Below, piece after piece: positions 3,611-55,740 of a stretch of 64,000 bases of DNA (position 1 is the first letter of the stretch; each line of letters begins with the position of its first letter). Source of the DNA: Escherichia coli. GTDB taxonomy: Bacteria > Pseudomonadota > Gammaproteobacteria > Enterobacterales > Enterobacteriaceae. A model generated the notes under the pieces. The model saw nothing but the letters and a program-made list of their open reading frames with translations, was not told the DNA's origin and made no database searches. Position numbers and translations under genes: made by a program. The DNA lies in the NCBI RefSeq assembly GCF_024700885.2, contig NZ_CP117014.1; one strand, given 5' to 3'.

Positions 3611-3767
3611 CCCAGGCTCTGCATGAAGTGAATTTATATAGCCGTATTGATGGTTCTGGCTATAGAAACTAGACACGGGCGCGGTTTTTAGCGGAAATCT
3701 GACGCTAATGCAGGTGAAGGGAGGGCAGCTTAAAGTCTGATCAAATCATTTACGCACTCAAAATCAC

Positions 3768-3796
3768 GTTAGAACATTGATTTTAGTTTTCTAACA
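3768..3796 (+). promoter_or_regulatory. Operator-like inverted repeat GTTAGAA-N14-TTCTAAC overlapping a putative promoter
   Basis: Perfect 7-bp inverted half-sites 45 bp upstream of the 3839 start; contains the recurrent TTCTAACA motif. Confidence 0.45.
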
Positions 3797-3838
3797 TATT
3801 ATTTTACCGATCGGAACAAAACAGAGTCGGTATGCATT

Positions 3839-17041: not shown

Positions 17042-17098
17042 AGCACCCTCCTAAATAGGCGAGGGTACTTTACAGCAAAGGCGTTAATCTAAAAAGAT

Positions 17099-17106
17099 GT
17101 GTTAGA
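17099..17106 (-). promoter_or_regulatory. Operator-like motif (TGTTAGAA) upstream of the 17041-13420 operon
   Basis: Same motif family as 937-944 and others. Confidence 0.4.
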
Positions 17107-17114
17107 AATTTAAT

Positions 17115-18426: not shown

Positions 18427-18521
18427 TTTTCTAAAATTGATGACAAAAAATCACAGTTCGATCCTTTACTCACTCTGTTATTCGACATAAATTTGTCATA
18501 GTAATTTTATGTTAGAAAACT
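18427..18521 (+). promoter_or_regulatory. Two operator-like motifs upstream of the 18538 gene
   Basis: TTTTCTAAAATTGATGAC at 18427-18444 and TGTTAGAAAACT at 18510-18521. Confidence 0.4.
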
Positions 18522-18537
18522 AAATCGAGTAGGAATA

Positions 18538-22864: not shown

Positions 22865-22972
22865 TAATCCCCCGGGCAGGAAATGACCGAGGGGATGATA
22901 ATGAGAATGTTAAAACTGTATAGACTGGTAAAAAGATGAATGTATTAGAAAATTAATACTAAATATCTAATG

Positions 22973-24392: not shown

Positions 24393-24468
24393 TGGTGGCC
24401 CCTACCGGACTTGAACCGGTGACCGTGCGATTATGAGTCGCCCGCTCTAACCACTGAGCTAAAGGGCC
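24393..24468 (-). tRNA. tRNA with CAT anticodon, most like tRNA-Ile2 (lysidine, reads AUA)
   Basis: GGCCCTTTAGCTCAGTGGTTAGAGCGGGCGACTCATAATCGCACGGTCACCGGTTCAAGTCCGGTAGGGGCCACCA; cloverleaf folds; closely resembles E. coli ileX as recalled. Confidence 0.75.
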
Positions 24469-24897
24469 AGATTACTGTTAATTACGCTTACGCTTTTTGC
24501 CAGAACCGCGTAAGGCTTTTGCCGCTTGCTCTACCCCGTATGCAACCACCAGCAGAAACAATAATGTCCACTCCGGGTTTTTATCGGCAAACGCCCAAAA
24601 ATCCATCACTTGCAGCCACCTTTTAAGACAAAACGCCATTGCTGTTAGGTTGCGGTGCCGGGCGCCTCCCGGTGACGTTAACCAGTTAACAATTAACGCC
24701 GGATCACTTATGGATTCTCGTTACGCCAGTAAAAAGACCACCTTTACTGTTTTAACTGTTCCGCGTGCGCTTAGCCGCATTCACCGCAATGGTAAGAGCA
24801 TTTGGCTGACTGGGCGGCGATGACGCCTGTACGCATTTGGTGATCCGGTTCTGCTTCCGGCATTCGCTTAATTAGCCAAATACCCTTAATGTTGCAC

Positions 24898-24984
24898 TGG
24901 CGGAGAGTAATGGAATCGAACCATCATCGCTTGCGCAATGGGACGGTTTTCAAGACCGCTTGAGCACCATGCTCCCTACTCTCC
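24898..24984 (-). tRNA. tRNA-Ser (anticodon TGA) with long variable arm
   Basis: GGAGAGT...GGTCTTGAAAACC...GGTTCGATTCC...CTCTCCGCCA; 87 nt. Confidence 0.7.
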
Positions 24985-25438
24985 CGTTATTGTGGCGACC
25001 GGTGCTGATCTCCGGCTTGCGGTTATTTCAGACTCTCACGGGCGTTTAATTGCCCCGCCGAACAGCTCTTTTCCGCAATAGCTGCAATGTCTTTCGCGCA
25101 TCAGCCTGCGCATTCACCACAATGTTGAGAACACTGGTTGTCACGCTGCAACGCAACATTTATTCGTAGATTGGGATATGACCCCGTTACGCCAGTGTTC
25201 TCAACGTTGTAGTGCCGGTTACGGTTCCGGCCAGACCTCTTCCTCAACGGGGTGTTCTCCATACGGACTACCGTTTATTGGTCGTTCCTGCGGTTTATGT
25301 TGTGAAGCCAGATGCTTATCTTCTGGTTGCTTCAAAGAGCTGCACTTCATCACAACGGTAAGAGCATTTATGGCTCGCATCGCGGGAAAAAGCCCACGGT
25401 AGAGAGTCGAACTCTACAAATGCTCTTACCTGTTGTGT

Positions 25439-25514
25439 TGGTGCCGGTTAACGGGATCGAACCGCTGACCATTCGCTTACAAAGCGACTGCTCTACCAAC
25501 TGAGCTAAACCGGC
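25439..25514 (-). tRNA. tRNA-Thr (anticodon TGT)
   Basis: GCCGGTTTAGCTCAGTTGGTAGAGCAGTCGCTTTGTAAGCGA...GGTTCGATCCC...AACCGGCACCA. Confidence 0.7.
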
Positions 25515-25518
25515 AATT

Positions 25519-25605
25519 TGGTGGGGAGTGATGGAGTCGAACCACCCGAGTCGCAATGACAGTAGATTTACAGTCTACCCCGCTACCCCTACGGACTAAC
25601 TCCCC
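25519..25605 (-). tRNA. tRNA-Tyr (anticodon GTA) with long variable arm
   Basis: GGGGAGTTAGTCC...AGACTGTAAATCT...GGTTCGACTCC...CTCCCCACCA. Confidence 0.7.
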
Positions 25606-25610
25606 TAAAT

Positions 25611-25687
25611 TGGCGATGGTGGGTGGATTCGAACCACCTACCGAAAGCTTAGAAGGCTGCTGTTCTATCCTACTGAGCTACACCATC
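25611..25687 (-). tRNA. tRNA-Arg (anticodon TCT, reads AGA)
   Basis: GATGGTGTAGCTCAGTAGGATAGAACAGCAGCCTTCTAAGCTTT...GGTTCGAATCC...CACCATCGCCA; anticodon loop CTTCTAA like argU; stem slightly degenerate. Confidence 0.6.
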
Positions 25688-26756: not shown

Positions 26757-26920
26757 TTCTAACACTTTAATTTGTTAAATGCTGGTGGGCGAACAATAAC
26801 CAATAAGTGACTATCAAGCCCAGCAAGCGAAACGTGGGTACCGCCCACCAGCAAGGAAAATTCTATGTTAAGTTATCTTCACAATCAATACATTCGAATT
26901 GTGATTTTAGATTTCTAACA
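26757..26920. promoter_or_regulatory. Two operator-like motifs flanking an 11-bp perfect inverted repeat
   Basis: TTCTAACA at 26757-26764 and 26913-26920; GCTGGTGGGCG ... CGCCCACCAGC between them. Confidence 0.35.
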
Positions 26921-26922
26921 CA

Positions 26923-28131: not shown

Positions 28132-28212
28132 TGCTATTCCCGTTACTTTGTTAAATTATTTTTCTAACATATTTTATTAGTTTGATGACAGTATCGAAAG
28201 ATGCAATAAACA

Positions 28213-28755: not shown

Positions 28756-29250
28756 TTAATCAAGACAAACATACTCCGTGATAGCTTTTATGGCTTCAGC
28801 GGCACTGCGCGCCTCAAAGCAGTAGTAACCGGCTTCTGTGAGGCGAGTCATCCAGACGAGTTGTTCGGGAGTCAGGCGATTTCTCCCATGTTTCATCTCA
28901 ATGCGCATTCCGTGGTATCCCCCACAAGCAAGGTCTATAGAAAGATCGGGATATCCCTTCTTTTGGCCCTCTGCCACCATTTTTATTGCCGTCCTTATGC
29001 CTCGCAGGCCACCGTTTGGAGTGGCGTGAGTATGCTCATACACATAACGCATATTGCGATACATCCAGTCCAGGACGCGAACCTGCTCGTAATGCTCATG
29101 GTTCCTTTTGATTAGATCTGGGTTTTTCTCCAGTTCTCTAAGAGCTGCGGCATGTGGGGATGTTTCAGAATATTCACTGCGACGCCTTCTCTTTCGCGCT
29201 ATTTTTCTAACACACCCATTGATAGTAAATATGCGAAATAATAACAACAA
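28756..29250 (-). CDS. VRR-NUC domain nuclease (PD-(D/E)xK fold); true start probably internal
   Basis: GYPDLSIDLACGGYHGMRIEMKHG...LTPEQLVWMTRLTEAG fits the VRR-NUC pattern; operator-like motif at 29205-29212 lies inside the longest ORF, so the real start is likely Met63/Met67 (about 29064). Confidence 0.55.
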   Translation of the reverse strand: MLLLFRIFTINGCVRKIARKRRRRSEYSETSPHAAALRELEKNPDLIKRNHEHYEQVRVLDWMYRNMRYVYEHTHATPNGGLRGIRTAIKMVAEGQKKGYPDLSIDLACGGYHGMRIEMKHGRNRLTPEQLVWMTRLTEAGYYCFEARSAAEAIKAITEYVCLD

Positions 29251-30120: not shown

Positions 30121-33100
30121 TTAGGCCGCATCGGCGATTATTTTACGCAGTTCATCTACCGAGTAACGCGTAGATACCATCCATGCAGGACGGTCAAAGT
30201 TCACATCAGCAACCGGGTTTGCTTCAAAATTCCAGAAACGTCCGCCAATCTTCTTAATCGCGTCTTTGGCGTTCCGTATTGTCGAGGAACCTGGTTGGTC
30301 GGCAATGAGATAAACCGCGCCAACGTCCTCGCTGACGCTCCACCAGCGCCCGCGAACACGCGCCTTAGCGCGAATCGGCTTATCATTAACCACAATGATA
30401 TAGTCATCATTCGCCGCTTCATCAGCTCTGGCTTCAGCCACTGCCGCCTGCTCTTCTCTTTTGCTTTCAGCCTGCTCAAGCCTTTCCGCGATCTCTGATT
30501 CAGTGGCCCCGCCGTTTTTCAGCGATACATAGTCCTGCCACGTTGCCGATTTGAGCGTATCCGGCAACTCATTCACATAGTCGCCGTCTTTCAACTCACG
30601 GGCGCGGCGGGTAGCCATTTCTACCAGGCGATTAACAGAAACAGCATCAGCAAAATCGTCCTTACTAATGTGTTTTTCATCAAATGCATTGATGACAGCC
30701 CCCACCTTAATCCACTGTGCTGCCGGTGATTCCAGGGGGTTATCAGCCTGAACAATGGCGAGTTTCGCTCCATCTACCCCATTATTCGCCAGCTGTTCCA
30801 ATGCCGCCCATCCATCTGCATCACTGAGTGATTTATATTGCTCAAACAATGCATCGCGCCAGGCCACCAGCGCAGAACGTGTTTTTTCGATCTTCGCCTT
30901 AATTTTCGCGATCTTGACCTGATTAAACATCCGTTCAATATCATCGATATTGCTAAAGGCTTTCATCCTGCCCTGGAATAAACGGTATGCCAGCACGGTC
31001 CTCCAGAATGATTCCAGACCTTCTCCGGACGGTTTGCGGAACAAGCTAAGAATATCTTCAGAAGTGACTTTATTAAGCGAACGACCTGACAGACCACGCC
31101 CAGCCATCCAGTTTTCGAACTCATGGGCAACATCATCCATCGTTGCCTGTGCGCCCCATGCCTGCATTCCCTGGGTGTAATCATACCCATACAATGCCTG
31201 GAGGAATCCCTCGCCGTCCACGATATTCAGCGGGTTATCACTGGCTTGTATTTTTGCCACTTCACGCTTCAGCGCCTCGTCGTTGCCATCAGGATATATC
31301 CATCGCTCAGGTGCTATATCCGATGCTCGCCCGATTTTTTGGCCTATCACGCCATCATAGGCCGATGACAGCGCGATCTGACCATCATCTGTGCGATATG
31401 CCCAGTATTTAATAGCTGACCCACCGCCCCATGCATTACCAGGTTTACCAGCAATAACATTCATTACCCCATTGCGAATAGCATCATAGAACTGATCGCG
31501 AGTAAGTATTGTTGATAGCTGGTGGCACTGAACACCACGCGCAGCCGTTGCGCGCGATTCAGCTACCCCCTCTTCAAAAGTTACCGCTTCAATCACAGAG
31601 TCAAACGGCAATGTAACGATTGACCCCGGTGCTCGAGCGTAACGACTTGCTCTATCCAGCCAGGCGATACGGCAGAGGTATTGTGCTTTTTCACCGTCAA
31701 TTTTTTCCACCCGGACAATCGCTGTTGTTTCGCGATCATCAATGACTGCACGGTAATAACTACCTTTATGCAACAGGATATTCTTGTCAGTGCGCATATA
31801 TTCCTGTGGGTTCTGAATAACATCGATACTGATATCCAGCACACCAGACTTAATAGCGCGCTCCACCTCACCACGAGAGCGTTTCATTATGGTATCCGCG
31901 TCTTTTGCCCTGGTGATCGCAAACCGCAGCACCCGCGCACGTTTTCTGTAGCTACTCAACTGCTCAAGCGCGTATTTTTGCCCATTCCTGTTCGTACCCG
32001 CTTTTATCAGGTCGTCAAGATTGCGCTGGTAATACTCTATCTGTTCCATCGCGCTTTTCAGTTCTGTCTCCATCATGCCGATATCTTTTCCGGCGGCGTT
32101 TGCCGCTTTCAGGTAGATATCGAGAGCATTGTTGGCCTCGCGCTGTGCTTTCAGTTTCAGACGTTCTTCACGCTCTTGCGCCTGGCGAGCCATGATTGCG
32201 CGGCGTTCTTCCGGGTTTGCCGCCAGCATAATGGCGCGTTCATCAGCATCATCCGCATCACCATTGGCGATCTCTGACATGTCGGATGTCATCACCATCT
32301 TGATCCAGTCTTTCTTACGTTTCAGCGTATCCAGACGGAAGTCGTCGAATGTGCCTTTGCCACAATAGTAGTGAACATTGACCTTTTCTTGCGGTGAACC
32401 TACGCGCGCACCGCGCCCATTTCGTTGGTCGATACTGGCTGGTGTCCAGGGTAGTGTCAGGTGGTGGATATCGGTTGTCCCGATGTGCAGGTTAATACCT
32501 ACTTCAGCCTTCTTGTTACAGATTATGATGCGCGTGCGACCTTCGTTATAGTCGGCGGCAATACCTTCCATGCCCTCAAGGCCAGCATCATTTTTAGCGG
32601 AGAGATAATCCTCATATTGGGCAAGTTTGCTGTAGTAGGTTTCCCATGCCCCTTCTTTGTATTCACCGTTTTTGTTTGGAGTAGGTTCGGTCGGCTTATT
32701 CACCTTCTTCAGCTTGATGCCACCAGCCTGGCTAACTGTCGTCGCATTGATAATGCCAATCTCCTGCTCCGGCATTTGCAGTGCACTGGCGATAATACGG
32801 CGCAGCTTCTGGTGCTGGGCTTTTTCATCAATAAAGACGATCTGCTTACCGTTCTTCAGACCTTCACGAAGATTTTCGATCAGCGCGGCATACTTCGGCG
32901 GGATGGGGTGCGACACCTGCTGCATATCAATGCCGGCAGCCGCAATGGCCTTCAGTATTTCAGCTTCCAGTTCAATGCTGGCACGTATTTCAACATGCGT
33001 CGGATGTTCACTAAAAGCGGTCTTCACTACCTTGCTGGTACGCGTACTGACCAGCCCGCCAGCGCCGTCTTCCTCGGCCTCATCAACATCATCTGCCACT

Positions 33101-36100
33101 TTACCGCCAGCTACTTTTGGCAAGGCATCAGCAATAGCTTTTACCTGGTCTGCAAGCTCAACGGGGAACTGGAATGTAATCGCACTGGCATACAGATCCG
33201 GGTCTATAGCAACCTTATCCATGTCACGGATGATGGAGAAGATGAAATCATCCGGTTTGTCGTTAGTGATATGCCCGTTTTCATCGACTGTCAGCTCATC
33301 ATTGCGACTTAACTCCTGAGCACGCTTACGAAGCTCTTCATAAGCAGTCTCCTGCTCCCCTGTCATCGGGATCTGCAAGGTGTTCTCGATGATGTCGGGA
33401 ATTTTAACCGTCGCTCCGACATCTGCAGCAGTCTTCAGAGTGGTCCAACGATGGAAAATACCACGCAGGCCGTCAAGGTTCTGGAAGCCCACCAGCCCCT
33501 GCTTCTCTTCCACTTCCCCGGAAATTTTCTGGACCTGAACTGTGGCTGTTTTGCCAAACACACGAACGAAATCATCAGGCGTAATGATGCCCATGCGCAT
33601 CCACTCTTCCTGCGGAATGACAGTAGACAGCATGTTGAAGGCATCAATCGGACTGTTCACCAGCGGTGTTGCCGTCAGCATGACTACACCACGCCCGTTG
33701 TTGCGTTTCATCATGTACGCAGCTTTTACAGCCATGTCGCGGGCCATCTTGGATACTGCCGGGTTAGGCAAATATGCCAGTTGTCCCGCTTCACGCCCGG
33801 CATTAAAGGAGTTGCGGTAGTTATGCCCCTCGTCGGCAATCACGCTATCGAAGTTCATATCCTCAAAGTACGGGATATTCTGCTTCTTCGTTGTACCGGT
33901 ATTCGCGGCCTGATCCTTAATCTTGTTCTTCTTCTGCGCATCACGGTGTTTACCGGACGCCAGGTCAAGACGCCCCATTTCCACAGCATTAAAGACAGCT
34001 TGCTGTGAGTTCTCCTCGATGGTTTTTTCTCGTAGCGGGATAGACGCGAATTGTTCTTTTGTCATGATGACCGTTCGCCAATTTGACGACGGGATCATGT
34101 TCATGCGCTGAACGATAACGGCGCTGGCGGACTCTTTCACAACATTTCTGGTAAGAGGCTGCCCGTTACTGTCGAGGCGTGGTTCGCCATTTTCATCAAG
34201 CACCGGCGCGGTCAGAATATTTCCGCTGTCATCACGAACTTCATCCAAACCGATAAACATCATATTGGCGAAGGCATCAGCACTGTAGAAACTCTGTGCC
34301 TCGTGATACCAGTTCTGATAAACCGCCTTCGGAACAACAATACACGTGCGTTTAGTGCGACCTGTTTCGAAGTTATACGCCTCAAGCGCAAGCGCGGTCG
34401 TGGTTTTACCCAGCCCGGTACCAAATCCCATGATGCCGCGCCCATCTTCTGACAAGCTACGAACTTCTTCATTCTGATAAGTCAGAGGAATGCGCTTTCC
34501 ACTAATCCCTTCCAGGCCAAGCGGTGCGTTAGAGTGCGTGAACGGAATGAAGCCATTGAATGCGTCGTTATAGTCACGGGCTATCTGATCCGCCTGCGGG
34601 TGGGTGCGTAACCAGTCGTTAAAGCTAACTTCCAGTTGAGCAATTTTATCCAAGTACTCGTTAGCGTTCTGCCCACGCGGTTTAACACCGTTCAGGTAGT
34701 TTTCTAACTGGTTCAGGAAGCCGTCTTTATTGTTGGCCTTCTTGAACTCATTCCCGTTTTTGCCGTTTACGGTTCGTAGTTGATAGCCGGTAAATACCCC
34801 GTCCTTACCTTCGTAATCGTCCGGAGATACCAGAATGCCATCGACGACCTTCAGATCAGGTTCAGTGTACTTAAACTCGTCATAGCCCTGCTCTGCCAGG
34901 AACTCTTTTATCAAGCGGCGATCCAGCCAGCGGGCATTCAGATTAACGGTGACTTTATTTAGTGGCGTGAAAATGCGTTTCTCTTCGATTTTCGCCAACT
35001 GACGCTCAAAGTTCGCTTTCTGCTCACCTGTTGACGCATCACGCCAGCCCACCAGCAGTGCTGTTTTGGTTGCAACATCGCCGCTGGTGGCGCGGTCCAT
35101 CGGCAGCAGACAGCCATACCCATCAATAGCGATATCATCAAATTTCGCCAGGTATTCAAGGACCGCGTCGTCGTCCTCTGGCAGTTCACCAGCAAACGCC
35201 TCACGAAAGTCGCCCAGCGTTATAGGATTAAGGGCTACATCACTAAAAAGATGTGCTATCACTTGTTCAGGACGCGTAAAGTCAATACCGGCAGCACCAT
35301 CCGTTACATCAAGTCGCCCTGCCAGAAGGTCAGAAGTGGAACCATCCTGTTTCACATTGCCAGTGAACGTCATCCAGTTTTTAGCGCCAGCTTCAGCAAG
35401 CCCATTCAGCTTAATCGCGTGCGGTGGTCCATACTTCGCAACTTCTGCTGCCGCCAGGCGGGATGCATCTGCCAGTTTGTCATCAACGTTCACCCCCAGG
35501 TTACGCAAATCAAGTGCCTTGTTGATCAACTGACCTATCAGTGCACCGCGCATAACGCGCTCCCTGTCTTTTTCTCGCTGCTTGCCAGCAAAGCGAATCA
35601 TTGCTGCCACTTCATCACTGACAACCGATGGATAGTCGGACGCGATCGCCGATATCTGGTCCCATGACAAAGCCAGAATCCCGTTTGTTGACTGGAACGC
35701 GATCTGCAGATCGCCAAACGTCGAAACACCATATCGACTTACATCAAGCGCGGAGGATTTGGTTGTCGTGTCCTTAACCCATTTCAGACCATCAAACTCA
35801 TGCCAGATACCGCCTACAAGGCGTTTATCGCCCACTTTCGCGCCCTGCCATGCCTGAGTAGTTACGCCGAGCAAATCCCAATTGATGCGACTATCAAAGC
35901 GACGAGATAGCGCGGTTTTCATCGACTCATTGGATACACGACCGTCTTTTTTCACCACCAGGGTATTGCGGAAGCTGGTACGTTCCATGTCGCCGTAAAC
36001 AAATCGCTTCCCTTCGGTTGTAAACCATTTCCCTTTGAGGAAGGTATCCCAAAGGACGTTTGCCGATTTGAGCGTCGAATCATCCGTATCGGGGATCATC

Positions 36101-36957
36101 ACCAGGAAGGCTTCCGGGTGTTTACGCAATACCCATACGTCCACCACGGTATCTGTACCTGATTCACTGAACGTACCGGAAGGCATACGATGCGCGCCCA
36201 AAAATTCCGCTTTACGGCTGACTTTATCGCGCAATTTTTTGTATTTCGTACCATCAGTCATGCCATTCGGCACCACCAATACGATAAGCCCACCAGGTTT
36301 AACCTTGTCGATCGTGCGCAGCACAAAGTAATTGCCAACGTTCTTCTCGTTTGCATATGCCGGATCAAGCCCTGCAACGCCGGAACGGCCTTCGCCAAAC
36401 GGTACGTTACCAACAGCGTGGTCATACATTGCGTCTTTCGCCGCCAGCGCCTCAAACGCCCCGATATTCACATCGTCTTCCGGGTGCAAAAGCTGGTTTA
36501 TTCGACCGGAAATCGGAGACAGCTCGGCGCTGGTCATTATCATTCCCTGCCGTTTTGTCTCCTGGAAAATACCCGTGCCAGCTGATGGTTCCAGTACGTG
36601 ACCGCCATCAATACCGTAGTCAGCAAACAGCTCCCATATACCTTCAGCCATAAACTGTGGCGTGTAGTATTCGTATTGGCTGCCCTCACCATCTGTCAGG
36701 CCGCCTTCACCGGTATACCCAGCAAGAATCTGACGTTGTTCGTCAGTTAATTTCGCCCCATCGAAGCCGGGCGGAAGGGAATTAAGAAGATTTACTGCGG
36801 CATTGTTTGCTGCCCGGCGTGTTTTCTGAATACTGACGCCATCGGCTTTCCTGACGCCAAAGGTCGCAACAGCACGTAATTTATGCAACCGACTAACAAT
36901 TTCAATCAGTTCGCCTAAGCTGGAGGCTTCACTGATTGAATGAAGTAGTTTGTCCAA
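30121..36957 (-). CDS. darB: DarB-like virion anti-restriction protein (N6-adenine methyltransferase plus helicase)
   Basis: 2278 aa (P1 DarB about 2255 aa as recalled); methyltransferase motifs LEPSAGTGIF and NVPFG; helicase Walker A GFGTGLGKTT and VIADEGHNYRN. Confidence 0.75.
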   Translation of the reverse strand: MDKLLHSISEASSLGELIEIVSRLHKLRAVATFGVRKADGVSIQKTRRAANNAAVNLLNSLPPGFDGAKLTDEQRQILAGYTGEGGLTDGEGSQYEYYTPQFMAEGIWELFADYGIDGGHVLEPSAGTGIFQETKRQGMIMTSAELSPISGRINQLLHPEDDVNIGAFEALAAKDAMYDHAVGNVPFGEGRSGVAGLDPAYANEKNVGNYFVLRTIDKVKPGGLIVLVVPNGMTDGTKYKKLRDKVSRKAEFLGAHRMPSGTFSESGTDTVVDVWVLRKHPEAFLVMIPDTDDSTLKSANVLWDTFLKGKWFTTEGKRFVYGDMERTSFRNTLVVKKDGRVSNESMKTALSRRFDSRINWDLLGVTTQAWQGAKVGDKRLVGGIWHEFDGLKWVKDTTTKSSALDVSRYGVSTFGDLQIAFQSTNGILALSWDQISAIASDYPSVVSDEVAAMIRFAGKQREKDRERVMRGALIGQLINKALDLRNLGVNVDDKLADASRLAAAEVAKYGPPHAIKLNGLAEAGAKNWMTFTGNVKQDGSTSDLLAGRLDVTDGAAGIDFTRPEQVIAHLFSDVALNPITLGDFREAFAGELPEDDDAVLEYLAKFDDIAIDGYGCLLPMDRATSGDVATKTALLVGWRDASTGEQKANFERQLAKIEEKRIFTPLNKVTVNLNARWLDRRLIKEFLAEQGYDEFKYTEPDLKVVDGILVSPDDYEGKDGVFTGYQLRTVNGKNGNEFKKANNKDGFLNQLENYLNGVKPRGQNANEYLDKIAQLEVSFNDWLRTHPQADQIARDYNDAFNGFIPFTHSNAPLGLEGISGKRIPLTYQNEEVRSLSEDGRGIMGFGTGLGKTTTALALEAYNFETGRTKRTCIVVPKAVYQNWYHEAQSFYSADAFANMMFIGLDEVRDDSGNILTAPVLDENGEPRLDSNGQPLTRNVVKESASAVIVQRMNMIPSSNWRTVIMTKEQFASIPLREKTIEENSQQAVFNAVEMGRLDLASGKHRDAQKKNKIKDQAANTGTTKKQNIPYFEDMNFDSVIADEGHNYRNSFNAGREAGQLAYLPNPAVSKMARDMAVKAAYMMKRNNGRGVVMLTATPLVNSPIDAFNMLSTVIPQEEWMRMGIITPDDFVRVFGKTATVQVQKISGEVEEKQGLVGFQNLDGLRGIFHRWTTLKTAADVGATVKIPDIIENTLQIPMTGEQETAYEELRKRAQELSRNDELTVDENGHITNDKPDDFIFSIIRDMDKVAIDPDLYASAITFQFPVELADQVKAIADALPKVAGGKVADDVDEAEEDGAGGLVSTRTSKVVKTAFSEHPTHVEIRASIELEAEILKAIAAAGIDMQQVSHPIPPKYAALIENLREGLKNGKQIVFIDEKAQHQKLRRIIASALQMPEQEIGIINATTVSQAGGIKLKKVNKPTEPTPNKNGEYKEGAWETYYSKLAQYEDYLSAKNDAGLEGMEGIAADYNEGRTRIIICNKKAEVGINLHIGTTDIHHLTLPWTPASIDQRNGRGARVGSPQEKVNVHYYCGKGTFDDFRLDTLKRKKDWIKMVMTSDMSEIANGDADDADERAIMLAANPEERRAIMARQAQEREERLKLKAQREANNALDIYLKAANAAGKDIGMMETELKSAMEQIEYYQRNLDDLIKAGTNRNGQKYALEQLSSYRKRARVLRFAITRAKDADTIMKRSRGEVERAIKSGVLDISIDVIQNPQEYMRTDKNILLHKGSYYRAVIDDRETTAIVRVEKIDGEKAQYLCRIAWLDRASRYARAPGSIVTLPFDSVIEAVTFEEGVAESRATAARGVQCHQLSTILTRDQFYDAIRNGVMNVIAGKPGNAWGGGSAIKYWAYRTDDGQIALSSAYDGVIGQKIGRASDIAPERWIYPDGNDEALKREVAKIQASDNPLNIVDGEGFLQALYGYDYTQGMQAWGAQATMDDVAHEFENWMAGRGLSGRSLNKVTSEDILSLFRKPSGEGLESFWRTVLAYRLFQGRMKAFSNIDDIERMFNQVKIAKIKAKIEKTRSALVAWRDALFEQYKSLSDADGWAALEQLANNGVDGAKLAIVQADNPLESPAAQWIKVGAVINAFDEKHISKDDFADAVSVNRLVEMATRRARELKDGDYVNELPDTLKSATWQDYVSLKNGGATESEIAERLEQAESKREEQAAVAEARADEAANDDYIIVVNDKPIRAKARVRGRWWSVSEDVGAVYLIADQPGSSTIRNAKDAIKKIGGRFWNFEANPVADVNFDRPAWMVSTRYSVDELRKIIADAA

Positions 36958-38755: not shown

Positions 38756-39168
38756 AGTTACGGCCTCACTAACAGGTTTAACAACCTGCCACCCGCTGTC
38801 AAACAGGTGGCAGGACGTGACAGGGTTGACAGACTGGCGTTAGTGAAACCAGCAGGCCGAAGCCTCCCCATCACGCCCCACCATAATTCGGGCGTAACGC
38901 GGTTTACGGACACAAAAATACCGCAATATCGGAAATCTGCGGTTGTCCGCACTAACATTCAGGCTGTCAAACCCGGTCGCAGAATTTGCTACGACGGCAT
39001 GAATATAAGCCTGAAAACATGGAAGATCAACTAAAAATTTCAGCAATGGATGACTTCAGTCGATGATGCAGATCATACATTCCGTTTTAGAAACAGCAAA
39101 TTAATTTTCTAACATAAATAATCGGCCGAGCATTTTCCGATCATTGGGATGTTTTGTAGACACACAGG

Positions 39169-40131
39169 TCATCCCCTAAATCCCGCAGGGATTGACCAAT
39201 CCTCACGGTCAAATTCAGACCGATAGCCACGCTGTTTCATCAGGTCAAAGGCTTCACCAATGGTTGCACACCCCTGGGAGCCAGAATAATCCATTGAGAA
39301 ATCTAGGGCACTGGATTGTTTAGGCTTATTCACTGCGGTAGCGGCACTACGTATCCATGCAAATTTTTTTGCCAGCTTTTCAGCGGTACGATACAGAGCC
39401 TGCCGTTTTGCGTGCCCCTCGTCTGAACGACGCTTTGCAGCTCTCGCTTTTGCCGCCGCCAGGCAGTGGTTGGTATGTTCTTCCCTGATTACTGGTTTTT
39501 TATCCAGTACCCCGTTATCCGTTTGAGAACTATCTGCAGGTGAAGCCTTTGGCTGAACCGCGCATGATCTTTCTCTTCTTTTGGCTATAGAGTGACTCTT
39601 ATTTTCTATTGGCTGTTCATTTTGAACATGGGGGGACTTGTTCAATTTGAACAGGGGGTTCCCAGTTTCAAAAAAATAACGAACCTTTGAAATCAACTGC
39701 TTAACCAGTTTTGTGGCGTTGGCAAATTTGATGCCCTGCTTACCCCCTATCTCCATTGCTACATGAATGAAGTGGAGAAATTGTGTCGTAAACCGATATA
39801 CGTTACACACCTGGGCATTGTTATTCGCTACCTGATGTTGCTTAACAAGCATTCCGCACTTCGTCGCTTCAGCAAATGCCCGGCGCACAGTAGAAATACT
39901 GCGTCCTGTAATCTCGGACATATCAGCATATGAGCGACGGATCATGTATTCATCGGTAGACCCTGCCAGGTTGGCGAACTCGGCAATAATGGCGCTATGT
40001 GAAGGGGAAAGAAGACCGCTATGACGAGCAAAAAAACTCAACTGATGACCTTTGATTTTTTTGTGGTATTCAGTGTTGTTTTTATACTCAGAAGTGTTGA
40101 AAGTTACTGAAACTGAATTTAAAATACTCAC
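39169..40131 (-). CDS. Putative replication initiator (RepL-like) with internal palindromic repeats
   Basis: HTH-like MSEITGRSISTVRRAFAEATKCGML; two tandem palindromes inside the coding sequence; operator-like motif upstream. Confidence 0.4.
   Translation of the reverse strand: MSILNSVSVTFNTSEYKNNTEYHKKIKGHQLSFFARHSGLLSPSHSAIIAEFANLAGSTDEYMIRRSYADMSEITGRSISTVRRAFAEATKCGMLVKQHQVANNNAQVCNVYRFTTQFLHFIHVAMEIGGKQGIKFANATKLVKQLISKVRYFFETGNPLFKLNKSPHVQNEQPIENKSHSIAKRRERSCAVQPKASPADSSQTDNGVLDKKPVIREEHTNHCLAAAKARAAKRRSDEGHAKRQALYRTAEKLAKKFAWIRSAATAVNKPKQSSALDFSMDYSGSQGCATIGEAFDLMKQRGYRSEFDREDWSIPAGFRG
39614..39657. repeat. Two tandem palindromic sites TGTTCA-N3-TGAACA inside the RepL-like gene (candidate internal origin)
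   Basis: TGTTCATTTTGAACATGGGGGG and TGTTCAATTTGAACAGGGGG about 24 bp apart. Confidence 0.4.
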
Positions 40132-40304
40132 CAGATAGTTCCGTGAAAAAATCTATCTACCGTATAAATCTATGGCAGTGGATTTATACACCCAAAAAGC
40201 CGCTTCTCAGCGGCTTTTGCTTTTTTGGCAGTCGCTACCGGAGCAGTGACCGCGATCCTACTCGATCCCATCCACCAGGATCAACAGTGTATATAAATAC
40301 ACTA

Positions 40305-40312
40305 TGTTAGAA
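40305..40312 (-). promoter_or_regulatory. Operator-like motif upstream of the RepL-like operon
   Basis: TGTTAGAA about 175 bp upstream of the 40131 start. Confidence 0.35.
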
Positions 40313-40331
40313 ATTTAACTTAACAAGGCGA

Positions 40332-41330
40332 TTACCCCCTTCTGGAAACGAAGAGTAACGGGGTAGTGTTTTTGTTCTCCTTCGGTGATAACTCTGGTTC
40401 TTTCTTGCCTGATACCGGTAAGCCATAAGTAGCATTTGCCCCAAGAGATTCAAGCATCGCAGCCACTATGCGGGCATCATCTTCAGACTGCATACGGCAG
40501 AGCGCCCGGCGCTGTTCTGCGCTGATAAAAACAGGCATTTCCTGGATAGCTTCACGCAAAATCCGGCGGCATTGCTTTGCATTTTCCCCCTGGCTTTCCA
40601 TCATCGCTGTTTGAGCGCGCAGCTTATCTCGAAGCTGTATGTTTTCCACTTCAAGGAGCATCAATTCTGATTCCAGGGCTTCACGATGTGCAGATTCGAG
40701 CATGGCTTGCTGATTTTTCATTGCTGAAAAGTGGTGAACCAGATCCGTAGCAGCGTTATCGGTAAAACCTTGTTCGATAAGTGCTGCATGAATAGCCGCA
40801 TCGCGCTCTTCTGCTGATTCAAGCATCAGGCTTTTCTTGTCGAGGCTGATATAGTTAGGCACAGTTACGTAATCAAAGCCGTGGAAAGACTTTACCAGGG
40901 ATACCGATGAATCTGGACCAGATGTAGCCCACGACCAACCACCAGCACCAGAATTAATCATGCCCTGAACAATACGCCCGGTGTCTGTATTCAGTATTTC
41001 CTGCGTATGAGTAACAATGCCGTTGTCGTCAATCGAAATGTCGATAGTCCTGTTTGACGGCACGTTCTCCAATACAACAGGCTTCCCATCTACCATCACA
41101 ACAGAGACTTCCGGCAAGTTCAGGCTTTTCGTTTTGTTATAGTGCATCGCCCGGCGACCATGACCGTAATAACCATACATCTCACCCAGCGCGATACGCT
41201 CTTTTGTTTCTGGCGAGTTGAATGTGTCTCGTACCGACTGAATGACGTAATTTCGGTTGTTCTGCGGTGTGTGTTTGCGGATTTTCTCTACCAGGGAGAA
41301 GCGATCCGTAACAGTATTCAGTGATTGCAT
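40332..41330 (-). CDS. Putative prohead protease/scaffold (Pro-like)
   Basis: 332 aa with C-terminal coiled coil; directly downstream of the portal candidate. Confidence 0.4.
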   Translation of the reverse strand: MQSLNTVTDRFSLVEKIRKHTPQNNRNYVIQSVRDTFNSPETKERIALGEMYGYYGHGRRAMHYNKTKSLNLPEVSVVMVDGKPVVLENVPSNRTIDISIDDNGIVTHTQEILNTDTGRIVQGMINSGAGGWSWATSGPDSSVSLVKSFHGFDYVTVPNYISLDKKSLMLESAEERDAAIHAALIEQGFTDNAATDLVHHFSAMKNQQAMLESAHREALESELMLLEVENIQLRDKLRAQTAMMESQGENAKQCRRILREAIQEMPVFISAEQRRALCRMQSEDDARIVAAMLESLGANATYGLPVSGKKEPELSPKENKNTTPLLFVSRRG

Positions 41331-52566: not shown

Positions 52567-53131
52567 CATCAGGCGCGGTGCTGGTATCTGTTGCCTCCAC
52601 CGCGTCAATGTAATCCAGCACAGCGTTAAGTCGGGTGGTTTCTGCCTGCGTCAGCTTCCGCCCGGCCCGTAATTTCAGCTGAATCAGACTGATGGAAGCC
52701 ATTGCAGCATCAATCAGCGACTGGCGCTTTACTTCTGCCGCGTCTAGTGCGGCGCTATGCTGTGCCTCGGTATCCGTCACCCATTTCTCACCATCCCATT
52801 TATCGTATGGCGTTAACGGTGAAAGCGTGACATAACCGTCTTTGATGGCACCGATATAATCCACTGTAACAGCTGCGCCATTTTCTGTTGAGTAAACAGT
52901 CTCATTGCGATGGTCTTCTTCATGGCTCCATCCCTTACCCGTAAATACTGCCACTCTTCCCGGAATGTATTCGCCCGGGTCAATACCAGTGGAACAGGCG
53001 GGCATACTTACGCCAGTATTAATATATTCATCAGACCAGCCAGTATATTCATACGTAACTGCCTCATAATAAAAACAACGCATATTACCCGGTACTGTAG
53101 CCAGCCCATTTTCATCAAAAACAGGTTTCAT
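52538..53131 (-). CDS. Tail-fibre assembly chaperone (U), expressed orientation
   Basis: 197 aa; MKPVFDENG...Tfa-type sequence; directly downstream of the fibre gene. Confidence 0.7.
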   Translation of the reverse strand: MKPVFDENGLATVPGNMRCFYYEAVTYEYTGWSDEYINTGVSMPACSTGIDPGEYIPGRVAVFTGKGWSHEEDHRNETVYSTENGAAVTVDYIGAIKDGYVTLSPLTPYDKWDGEKWVTDTEAQHSAALDAAEVKRQSLIDAAMASISLIQLKLRAGRKLTQAETTRLNAVLDYIDAVEATDTSTAPDVIWPELPEA

Positions 53132-55740
53132 TATGCAGCCCTCACAATATAATTAAAGGCGATGTTACGTGGACGGTTTTCATTAGCTGTTGGCACGACA
53201 CGAGAGGCGTCGAATCCAAGGTCATCGGTTTTGCCTATATCAGTTGTGTTATTCGGCATTCTCGCTGATCGTGTTCCTGCATCGTAAAAAGCCCCTCTGA
53301 TTGCATCAAAAGACATACCGATCCCGCCATCTGCGAATCCCTCAATATTTCTTATTGCATCCCCCTGTGAAGATAATAATTGTCGCCCGGCATCCACTCC
53401 ACGTCCGTCATCCCAGCCACGAATAAATTCACCGCGTAAATCAGGCAATTTATTTGTCGGATAAACCTTTGCCAGTTCCGGGTATTCTTCAGCAGAAAAA
53501 GCCGCACCGTTGCATTTCAGCCAGCCTGTTGGCGGAGTGGCGGAAGGCCACGGAACAGGCACACCAACGGGTAATGCCGAACCTTCTCCCAAACCAAGGT
53601 AATTGAGGACATCTTTTATACTGCCCTTAGCGATAATAGCGCGACCAATAGCTGTAAGGGTTGTCAGCGCTGCGCGGTCTGCTCCGGTAAAATAAGGCAA
53701 CCGATCTGCTGCAGTGGCAAGTCCTGCCAGAGCAGTGAGCGTGGCATCTGCCGGTTGTTTTCCGTTTGCCAGATCGTATGCAGCCTTGACAGCTTTCGGT
53801 GTAGCGGCCAGCACTTCAGACGTGCTGTTAGTGGCACTACTGAGCTGAGTGATGCCTTTCGCTGTCAATGAAGCTGTTGGCACACCAGTGATCTGATTCC
53901 AGGGATGTATATGATTGGATGGTGCCTTTCCGGCTGCTAGATCGTATGCAGCTTTAACCGCTTTTGGAGTTGCAGCTAATGTTTCAGAAGTGCTGTTGGT
54001 GTCGCTACTGAGCTGAACTATCCCTTTTTGTGTCGTGGTTGCATCCTGGGCTGTGTACTTCCCGTTAGCCAGGTCATATGCAGCCTTGACAGCTTTCGGT
54101 GTAGCGGCCAGCACTTCAGACGTGCTGTTAGTGGCACTACTGAGCTGAGTGATGCCTTTCGCTGTCAATGAAGCTGTTGGCACACCAGTGATCTGATTCC
54201 AGGGATGTATATGATTGGATGGTGCCTTTCCGGCTGCTAGATCGTATGCAGCTTTAACCGCTTTTGGAGTTGCAGCTAATGTTTCAGAAGTGCTGTTGGT
54301 GTCGCTACTGAGCTGAACTATCCCTTTTTGTGTCGTGGTTGCATCCTGGGCTGTGTACTTCCCGTTAGCCAGGTCATATGCAGCCTTGACAGCTTTCGGT
54401 GTAGCGGCCAGCACTTCAGACGTGCTGTTAGTGGCACTACTGAGCTGAGTGATGCCTTTCGCTGTCAATGAAGCTGTTGGCACACCAGTGATCTGATTCC
54501 AGGGATGTATATGATTGGATGGTGCCTTTCCGGCTGCTAGATCGTATGCAGCTTTAACCGCTTTTGGAGTTGCAGCTAATGTTTCAGAAGTGCTGTTGGT
54601 GTCGCTACTGAGCTGAACTATCCCTTTTTGTGTCGTGGTTGCATCCTGGGCTGTGTACTTCCCGTTAGCCAGGTCATATGCAGCCTTGACAGCTTTCGGT
54701 GTAGCGGCCAGCACTTCAGACGTGCTGTTAGTGGCACTACTGAGCTGAGTGATGCCTTTCGCTGTCAATGAAGCTGTTGGCACACCAGTGATCTGATTCC
54801 AGGGATGTATATGATTGGATGGTGCCTTTCCGGCTGCTAGATCGTATGCAGCTTTAACCGCTTTTGGAGTTGCAGCTAATGTTTCAGAAGTGCTGTTGGT
54901 GTCGCTACTGAGCTGAACTATCCCTTTTTGTGTCGTGGTTGCATCCTGGGCTGTGTACTTCCCGTTAGCCAGGTCATATGCAGCCTTGACAGCTTTCGGT
55001 GTAGCGGCCAGCACTTCAGACGTGCTGTTAGTGGCACTACTGAGCTGAGTGATGCCTTTCGCTGTCAATGAAGCTGTTGGCACACCAGTGATCTGATTCC
55101 AGGGATGTATATGATTGGATGGTGCCTTTCCGGCTGCTAGATCGTATGCAGCCTTGACAGCTTTCGGTGTAGCCGCTTTTCTTTCTTCTGTACTGCTTAT
55201 TTCATTAGAGAATTCGACACCAACAGCCCGGTTAACCCGGTATTTAAGCACAATCATTTCTTTAGTCACAGCCGTTGCGCCGCTAGGCACGATAACTCGA
55301 CATAATTCAATTTGATTCTGCCCAATAGTATTGTCCGTACGCGCGTAAATTCTTGCAGCACTGACAGAAGATGCGCTATCTACCTGTGTCGTTTTTACAC
55401 CATGTTCAAAATTGGCTTCCAGCACAATAATGTTGGTAGCCCCTGCCTTTACCGAGACAGTCACATCTTCTATTTGCTGAACGGATATCTGAACATTATT
55501 TACATCTACTGAAGCAGCCCCTTTACCTTCGGAGTTTTCAGAAGTTATGCGGACACTCAACCCTGTGCCGGGAACCGGTTCAAATCCACAGTAAAAGCCA
55601 GGCAAAACAATATTTTTTAGTTTTCTGTTAAGAGCCAGACTACTATAGAGTTCGAAATATTGAACATCAGCAAGCAACGACTGTGAGACACCAGAGGATA
55701 GTGTCATTATGTTGTTCGTTTTATCAGCCCCCATAATCAA
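53131..55740 (-). CDS. Tail fibre protein S with tandem-repeat shaft and invertible C-terminus
   Basis: 869 aa; repeated ATPKAVKAAYDLA units; C-terminal GEFIRGWDDGRGVD...NIAFNYIVRAA; right crossover site inside the gene. Confidence 0.8.
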   Translation of the reverse strand: MIMGADKTNNIMTLSSGVSQSLLADVQYFELYSSLALNRKLKNIVLPGFYCGFEPVPGTGLSVRITSENSEGKGAASVDVNNVQISVQQIEDVTVSVKAGATNIIVLEANFEHGVKTTQVDSASSVSAARIYARTDNTIGQNQIELCRVIVPSGATAVTKEMIVLKYRVNRAVGVEFSNEISSTEERKAATPKAVKAAYDLAAGKAPSNHIHPWNQITGVPTASLTAKGITQLSSATNSTSEVLAATPKAVKAAYDLANGKYTAQDATTTQKGIVQLSSDTNSTSETLAATPKAVKAAYDLAAGKAPSNHIHPWNQITGVPTASLTAKGITQLSSATNSTSEVLAATPKAVKAAYDLANGKYTAQDATTTQKGIVQLSSDTNSTSETLAATPKAVKAAYDLAAGKAPSNHIHPWNQITGVPTASLTAKGITQLSSATNSTSEVLAATPKAVKAAYDLANGKYTAQDATTTQKGIVQLSSDTNSTSETLAATPKAVKAAYDLAAGKAPSNHIHPWNQITGVPTASLTAKGITQLSSATNSTSEVLAATPKAVKAAYDLANGKYTAQDATTTQKGIVQLSSDTNSTSETLAATPKAVKAAYDLAAGKAPSNHIHPWNQITGVPTASLTAKGITQLSSATNSTSEVLAATPKAVKAAYDLANGKQPADATLTALAGLATAADRLPYFTGADRAALTTLTAIGRAIIAKGSIKDVLNYLGLGEGSALPVGVPVPWPSATPPTGWLKCNGAAFSAEEYPELAKVYPTNKLPDLRGEFIRGWDDGRGVDAGRQLLSSQGDAIRNIEGFADGGIGMSFDAIRGAFYDAGTRSARMPNNTTDIGKTDDLGFDASRVVPTANENRPRNIAFNYIVRAA
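53584..53609. repeat. Right crossover site (cix/gix-like) inside the tail-fibre gene
   Basis: TTCTCCCAAACC-AA-GGTAATTGAGGA, inverted relative to the left site; segment between sites about 1.84 kb. Confidence 0.65.
53761..55160. repeat. About 4.6 copies of a 300-bp tandem repeat inside the tail-fibre gene (copies 2-5 perfect)
   Basis: Identical text recurs at 54061, 54361, 54661, 54961; first copy at 53761 slightly divergent; encodes a 100-aa unit. Confidence 0.85.

Follow-up and report, generated by a model that had tools for sequence, protein, structure and literature searches.

Which DNA does the initiator of lytic replication recognise in a phage-plasmid related to P1, and where does its origin lie? 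The question is raised by a 64-kb stretch of Escherichia coli DNA from contig NZ_CP117014.1 (referred to throughout, at its full length, as the window), in which an open reading frame (ORF) on the minus strand, 39169-40131, carries two closely spaced palindromes in the middle of its coding sequence. The ORF is related to the repL gene of P1, and since 1989 the P1 lytic origin, oriL, has been assigned to some part of repL. The comparisons described below make it likely that the window ORF encodes a RepL-type initiator and contains the lytic origin, dimers of RepL binding the palindromic dyads and opening an adjoining A-rich tract.

Identification of repL and its host element

As seen in the ORF list and its translation, the ORF at 39169-40131 has a GTG start and encodes a protein of 320 amino acids (aa). 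The DNA of the region is 97% identical to that of Escherichia phage D6 and, judged by this match, the window is a D6-like phage-plasmid of the P1 family, i.e. a plasmid prophage. The ORF is the counterpart of D6 orf20 (98% identical), which is labelled 'lytic replication protein, similar to P1 repL'. In a BLASTP comparison, the protein aligned with P1 RepL over 293 aa (28% identity, 92% of the length, E 6e-29), and tblastn searches matched repL in every P1-type phage (E 1e-14 to 1e-17) as well as in 635 plasmids. The family PF26868 (Phage_P1_RepL) is among the precomputed annotations of the 98%-identical cluster P0001 and of every divergent relative; the Pfam-A copy run directly on the window protein did not report this family and returned a weak match to HTH_36 (E 0.009). 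An NCBIfam scan of the protein gave no match, and a PDB sequence search gave only artefacts from designed repeats and weak helix-turn-helix (HTH) matches. When 1.84 billion representatives were searched with a profile, 60 matches were obtained at E<=1e-3 and 20 at E<=1e-10. As judged by these searches, the RepL family is small and coherent, and every full-length member examined has a P1-like phage-plasmid gene context, P0013 and the short contig with P0019 being the exceptions.

The AlphaFold (AF2) model of the window RepL (mean pLDDT 71) divides the protein as follows.

aa 19-157: winged-helix N-terminal domain, with the recognition helix at 79-91 and the wing at 95-114
aa 164-210: disordered linker (pLDDT below 50)
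aa 217-268: long helix of 50 residues
after the long helix: small C-terminal part, ending IPAGFRG

A preliminary description, made from the letters of the DNA, had claimed a 320-aa HTH protein and a candidate replication gene, and had named a homology search against RepL as the test that could refute the latter. The ORF is present, its HTH is seen in the HTH_36 match and in the modelled winged-helix domain, and the replication-gene reading was borne out by the E value of the alignment with P1 RepL and by PF26868. A plain HTH transcription factor, resembling RepL in the HTH alone and encoded at a locus that is no replicon, would suit the fact that the Pfam-A scan yields the weak HTH_36 match only, that fold searches return generic winged-helix regulators, and that RefSeq often names P1-type homologues 'helix-turn-helix domain-containing protein'. 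This explanation is extremely improbable, given that aa 28-320 align with P1 RepL, a range that takes in the linker, the long helix and the C-terminal IPAGFRG, which is identical in both proteins, and that the profile search delimits a coherent small family with members mostly in P1-like phage-plasmid contexts. By sequence, the window ORF is a full-length homologue of P1 RepL, the lytic replication initiator. The window repL is a further member of a known system, the gene being already annotated so in D6.

Two perfect dyads within repL

The two palindromes in the middle of repL, numbered in the direction of the gene, are as follows.

39614-39628, minus strand: dyad site 2, TGTTCATTTTGAACA (coding strand TGTTCAAAATGAACA, gene nt 504-518), adjoining the A-rich tract; candidate primary RepL site
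39639-39653, minus strand: dyad site 1, TGTTCAATTTGAACA (coding strand TGTTCAAATTGAACA, gene nt 479-493); candidate auxiliary RepL site

Both sites are perfect palindromes of the form TGTTCA-N3-TGAACA with 6-bp arms, and the distance from start to start is 25 bp. On the plus strand, site 2 is followed by a T and GGGGGG (39630-39635) and site 1 by GGGGG (39654-39658); read on the coding strand, CCCCCC and CCCCC at the same positions precede site 2 and site 1, respectively. Tandem palindromes with G-runs had been noted in the middle of the ORF at 39614-39657, and they were found there as described. No other perfect match to TGTTCA-N3-TGAACA occurs in the 64 kb. When one mismatch is allowed, there are three matches against 0.35 expected, a number reached by 0 of 100 shuffles. 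In the window the two sites are read in different frames and encode PLFKLN and PHVQNE.

Relation to the origin of P1

Huan, Brown and Wang stated in 2023 that the exact position of oriL in P1 is unknown (PMC9948254), and in the P1 database record the oriL annotation simply covers the entire repL gene. The same authors found that AT2, a 43-bp A/T-rich tract at repL nt ~495-540 ending AAACAAAAAGATC, is required in cis; mutations in AT2 abolish activity, and the IHF and DnaA sites are dispensable (PMC9948254). An 89-bp promoterless fragment, T5, works in trans as well as the full gene, and its sequence, given in the supplement, is ccccctccccc-TGTCAGGATGACG-tgg-AT2-gtttccggcggtgccgg (PMC9948254). 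This narrowing of oriL to 89 bp left the RepL binding site and the role of the C/G-rich segment before AT2 unsettled, and the words palindrome, inverted repeat and iteron are absent from the paper (PMC9948254).

Directly upstream of AT2, P1 repL contains two imperfect TGTCA-N3-TGAYR dyads, TGTCAAAATGATA at nt 457 and TGTCAGGATGACG at nt 481, each after a C-run. Alignment of the genes makes the window palindromes the counterparts of these dyads. The counterpart of site 2, TGTCAGGATGACG, lies within T5, and that of site 1, TGTCAAAATGATA, is absent from this still-functional fragment. The alignments also place two further elements in the window.

39565-39612, minus strand: A-rich, purine-biased tract, CCAATAGAAAATAAGAGTCAC...AAAGAAGAGAAAGATCA, the homologue of AT2 by alignment with the P1, Ec65 and Enterobacter genes; candidate unwinding element
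39547-39635, minus strand: stretch equivalent to T5, comprising the C-run, site 2, the A-rich tract and ~18 nt beyond, as placed by alignment of T5

The A-rich tract is 67% AT and 69% purine, and ends in GATC at 39566-39569. Both dyads and the tract fall in codons of the disordered linker (aa 160-190). The palindromes had been compared with the P1 oriL lying inside repL, and this likeness holds in that they occupy the place homologous to the P1 segment that contains the minimal oriL fragment T5. On this evidence, the window palindromes are probably sites bound by RepL.

Conservation and co-variation of the dyads

The DNA of repL was compared in 80 viral contigs, two intermediate plasmid lineages (65% and 35% identity) and 11 divergent lineages; labels such as '65% lineage' refer to identity relative to the window gene. 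This gave 14 lineages, most of them only ~16-35% identical to the window protein. A common layout was found in all 14, namely nnTCA-N3-TGAnn twice, usually after a C-run, and then an A-rich purine-biased tract. The dyads are spaced 24 nt apart in 10 lineages, 25 nt in D6 and the 65% relative, and 23 nt in P0021 and P0029.

With the 24-nt spacing, the two dyads share a reading frame, and the peptides they encode are alike (for example PPCQND/SPCQDD), with a conserved P-x-Q-N-D; the frame of site 2 does not differ between any of the lineages. These features would be expected if the palindromes were a by-product of a tandem peptide repeat, Pro-Pro-x-Gln-Asn-Asp, that is needed by the protein, the symmetry of the DNA having no function of its own. 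That explanation has only a small chance of being correct. The 25-nt or 23-nt spacing of D6, Ec65, P0021 and P0029 puts the two copies out of frame with each other; the site-2 peptides diverge (VQNEQ, DHADR, AHGEQ, RQNGV), and paired changes in the flanking codons keep the dyad. Moreover, the encoded segment is predicted to be disordered, and a promoterless non-coding P1 fragment with site 2 and AT2 serves as a replication target (PMC9948254). Because the D6-type copies are read in different frames, conservation of the dyad would act on the DNA and not on the peptide.

Within clades the arms never vary and the 3-nt spacers do, being AAT or TTT in the D6 clade and AAA and TGA in the 65% lineage. 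When clades are compared, the two arms are altered in step at their outer positions, examples being GTTCA/TGAAC (D6), GTCA/TGAC (P1-like), GATCA/TGATC (Enterobacter-like and others), TGGTCA/TGACCA and ACGCCA/TGGCGT (P0021). The arms of site 2 are complementary at positions d2-4 in 14/14 lineages and at d5 in 12/14, with three pair types at d5. Shuffling of columns matched the observed complementarity in 1 of 20000 trials for d5 and in none of 20000 for d4-6.

Site 1 is more degenerate than site 2 across the lineages, which fits the absence of its counterpart from the functional P1 fragment T5. The degeneracy also bears on a possible role of the palindromes in RNA, where, being complementary to each other, they could form a hairpin in the repL mRNA and so influence its translation, or transcription through the gene. 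A 91-nt RNA from the window indeed folds site 1 onto site 2 at -18.4 kcal/mol (z = -2.5 against shuffles). However, the pairing between the sites is not conserved, since site 1 is degenerate in many lineages, the hairpins formed by single sites are each short and A/U-rich, and a non-transcribed P1 fragment without site 1 is fully active as an origin (PMC9948254). A function in RNA is hence very unlikely.

In five lineages (L004 1879-1915; L090, L091, L092 and L093 mid-gene) the site-2 dyad is GATCA-N3-TGATC and contains two Dam GATC sites. For a site 2 of this type, methylation-sensitive initiation is a possibility.

The Dam sites in the half-sites of these five lineages, and the imperfect correspondence between recognition helix and site, would also agree with binding of the dyads by a factor other than RepL, a host or phage regulator for which they serve as a roadblock, a regulatory site or a methylation-sensitive switch. 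This is unlikely, though it is the alternative given most weight here. The half-sites differ between elements of the same host species, E. coli (GTTCA in D6, GTCA in P1), which argues for a reader encoded by the element. In addition, RepL is the only P1 protein needed in E. coli to replicate plasmids bearing repL (PMC9948254), and the site has no further copy elsewhere in the 64 kb.

Recognition of the dyads by RepL remains the preferred assignment. On balance, and with some hesitation, it is considered that the variable outer arm positions (GTTCA, GTCA, GATCA, CGCCA) may define separate classes of initiator-origin specificity, and that the pair of C-run and dyad may be the RepL recognition element across the P1 supergroup.

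Two other observations were set aside. Conservation of the origin core within clades was dropped as evidence, as it does not discriminate because the 5' 90 nt of repL are equally invariant. A perfect 13-nt inverted repeat (39246-39258 and 39539-39551), with its arms 280 nt apart in repL and ~0.02 expected, is probably due to chance; its counterparts in sister clades match at 10/13 and 8/13 positions without compensation.

Proposed mechanism of initiation

In the mechanism proposed, the N-terminal winged-helix domain of RepL, probably as a dimer, would bind the dyad sites nGTTCA-N3-TGAACn, with site 2 (39614-39628) essential and site 1 (39639-39653) a helper. Binding would destabilise the adjacent A-rich, strand-asymmetric tract at 39565-39612, and the host replisome would then be loaded, leading to theta replication. 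In the prophage state, a repressor bound at an operator, a short antisense RNA from a promoter at the 5' end of the gene, or both, may keep expression of repL low. The location of the origin in codons of a disordered linker would allow the symmetry of the DNA to evolve at little cost to the protein. The role of RepL as the dyad-binding protein, the unwinding of the tract and the regulation are inferred.

Several findings weigh against this mechanism. In P1, the data on requirement in cis bear on AT2 and not on the dyad itself (PMC9948254). The window tract is weaker than P1 AT2 (67% versus ~80% AT), and among 45-nt stretches of repL it ranks second in instability rather than first. The GC skew has no switch at repL and tracks gene orientation, and no DnaA boxes occur in or beside repL, their window-wide count being at chance level. 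The lineages in which site 2 co-varies are related, so that perhaps 3-4 independent events are represented. The sequence of the recognition helix has no clean match to the half-site, the outlier P0021 excepted, and GATCA occurs with two helix types. To these is added the in-frame repetition of similar peptides in 10 of the 14 lineages, owing to which some of the conservation may operate on the protein.

The D6-type gene, with its two perfect dyads, is the clearest form of the element, and comparison of the family yields a testable hypothesis in which the dyad is the RepL site and the A-rich tract the unwinding element. In the accessible literature, no description of probable RepL sites or of lineage-specific half-sites was found. 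If true, the hypothesis would also account for the way in which related phage-plasmids of one host keep their lytic replicons specific. Given separate specificity classes, D6-type and P1-type elements could coexist without cross-activation. Biosensors and recording devices already employ RepL/oriL to amplify copy number, and orthogonal pairs of RepL and origin would then be of practical use as amplifiers. For the GATCA class, the initiator site itself would include a target of Dam methylation. For genome annotation the result is an ordinary one, a repL homologue having been guessed correctly.

Upstream region and possible control of repL

The gene upstream of repL, pro, encodes a homologue of the head protease. 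The region between the two genes, the 5' end of repL and the sequence past its stop codon include the following features.

40097-40125, plus strand: strong candidate sigma-70-like promoter TTGAAA-17-TAAAAT (score 10/12), antisense, within the first 35 nt of repL
40162-40189: inverted repeat GTATAAATC-N10-GATTTATAC, directly before repL; it occurs once in the window (0 expected by chance)
40195-40218: G+C-rich hairpin AAAAGCCGCT-tctc-AGCGGCTTTT flanked by T-runs at either end; predicted bidirectional intrinsic terminator between pro and repL
40303-40318, plus strand: operator-like motif TATGTTAGAAATTTAA, abutting the palindrome AGTGTATATAAATACACT (40286-40303)
39101-39116, minus strand: second operator-like motif TATGTTAGAAAATTAA, between the repL stop, which it closely follows, and the c4 RNA region; equivalent to P1 Op51 by position

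The antisense candidate is the best-scoring promoter of the area and is conserved in the 65% lineage (L003, 1535 to 1507). In that lineage the stem of the hairpin at 40195-40218 is conserved and its loop is variable, and a terminator was called on the antisense strand in three lineages (the window, L003 and L004). Together, promoter and terminator predict an antisense RNA of ~95 nt, from ~40132 to 40228 on the plus strand. No convincing sense promoter for repL was found upstream. A weak candidate, TTGGGT-17-TAGATT on the minus strand, is overlapped by the inverted repeat at 40162-40189, of which the arms ATAAATC/GATTTAT are conserved and the spacer is variable in the 65% lineage.

It was observed separately that a stretch at the 5' end of repL, gene nt ~27-113, is invariant among 19 distinct D6-clade sequences (window 40042-40105 corresponds to nt 27-90). 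The invariant part encodes an N-terminal extension that is not conserved in P1 or Enterobacter RepL, and the antisense promoter overlaps part of this region.

The operator-like motifs belong to a family with the consensus TATGTTAGAAAAnTAAttt, of which there are ~12 copies in the window, 11/12 of them outside ORFs of >=90 aa.

276-291; 931-946; 3765-3798 (inverted pair); 17098-17113; 18508-18523; 22941-22956: operator-like copies
26907-26922; 28156-28171; 29199-29214; 39101-39116; 40303-40318: further operator-like copies

In several copies, TTTCTAA is found ~10 nt further on, giving partial dyads. This family is probably the operator set of a D6-type C1-like repressor, the TATGTTAGAAAAnTAA sites being candidate binding sites of the D6-type C1 homologue. 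The P1-type C1 operator, ATTGCTCTAATAAATTT, was not found in the window with up to 3 mismatches.

The block that holds the motif at 40303-40318 and the palindrome at 40286-40303 is conserved in the 65% and 35% lineages. The palindrome AGTGTATATAAATACACT was considered as a repeated late-promoter box and rejected, as it occurs once in the window.

An operator-like motif upstream of repL, and with it control of the lytic replicon by a repressor, had been put forward in the preliminary description. The motif is real and belongs to the family of ~12 copies, but it lies 172 bp upstream of the repL start, points away from the gene and is separated from it by the terminator at 40195-40218. Repressor control is supported in part only: the window lacks P1-type C1 operators and has an operator-like family of another kind, of which the copy near repL is not placed like P1 Op53.

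Comparison with known replicons

The window locus resembles the P1 lytic replicon in that the initiators are homologous over their full length and the origin elements occupy a homologous place within the initiator gene, with the same sequence architecture of C-run, dyad, C-run, dyad and A/T-rich tract ending in GATC. A genomic family of repressor operators and an antisense promoter near the start of the transcription unit are further points of likeness, both of them being predicted in the window. The identity is only 28%, however, and the window half-site is GTTCA whereas that of P1 is GTCA; the window dyads are perfect and are 25 bp apart rather than 24, hence in different frames. The window repL is located after pro and before c4-icd-ant, whereas P1 repL follows ant-kilA, and neither a DnaA box beside the dyads nor P1-type C1 operators are present. 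Unlike P1 Op53.P53, the nearest operator-like motif of the window is not over an obvious promoter. The antisense control by P1 P53as (PaskilA in the P1 annotation) is similar in the location of the promoter at the 5' end, and a terminator follows the window promoter. It differs in that the window promoter is inside repL and not in kilA; the window RNA is a predicted one, and its sequence showed no similarity to the P1 antisense region.

In phage lambda, the origin lies in the initiator gene O, in the segment coding for a flexible linker between the N-terminal DNA-binding domain and the C-terminal part, and ori-lambda consists of four dyad-symmetric initiator sites followed by an A/T-rich strand-asymmetric tract. 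The window likewise has dyad sites and an A-rich tract within linker codons of the initiator gene, and its protein gives weak profile matches to the PHROG 'replication initiation O-like' families (E 2e-7 and 2e-5). In contrast to lambda, there is no match to Pfam Phage_rep_O, the sites number two instead of four, and no gene for a lambda-P-like helicase loader adjoins. The likeness to lambda would be one of layout only, by analogy.

The initiators of iteron plasmids (Rep3/RepA/pi) differ more. The window protein has no Rep3 match in Pfam, and has one winged-helix domain, a linker and a long helix instead of tandem winged-helix domains; its sites are palindromic and within the gene, whereas iterons are direct repeats outside it. 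The RepL of Firmicute plasmids (PF05732) shares the name only, being an unrelated family with no match in the Pfam scan.

Genetic context

Upstream of repL lies pro (40332-41330) and downstream lies a c4/icd/ant region; kilA is absent. The order portal (prt), head protease (pro) and repL is found in 9/11 divergent lineages, as in the window (L085-L093, e.g. L085 924-5498 and L091 968-5426), which suggests that the placement of kilA-repL next to immI in P1 is a rearranged exception. In the divergent lineages, a cell-wall hydrolase gene on the opposite strand often follows repL. Two RNA features are assigned by Rfam downstream of repL in the window.

38956-39008, minus strand: c4-a1b1 (RF03163), directly downstream of repL
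38803-38888, minus strand: C4 antisense RNA (RF01695)

Beyond C4 are icd and an anti-repressor gene that, by the D6 annotation, is of HK97 Roi type rather than P1 ant. Elsewhere in the window, a tandem repeat at 53762-55164 (300 bp, 4.7 copies, 99% identity) lies inside an 869-aa ORF (53131-55740, minus strand), which would encode a protein with near-identical 100-aa repeats. A cluster of four tRNA genes is located at 24396-25687 on the minus strand (Rfam), and a 2278-aa ORF at 30121-36957 on the same strand is the counterpart of D6 orf15, whose annotation notes a similarity to P1 darB, which serves in defence against restriction.

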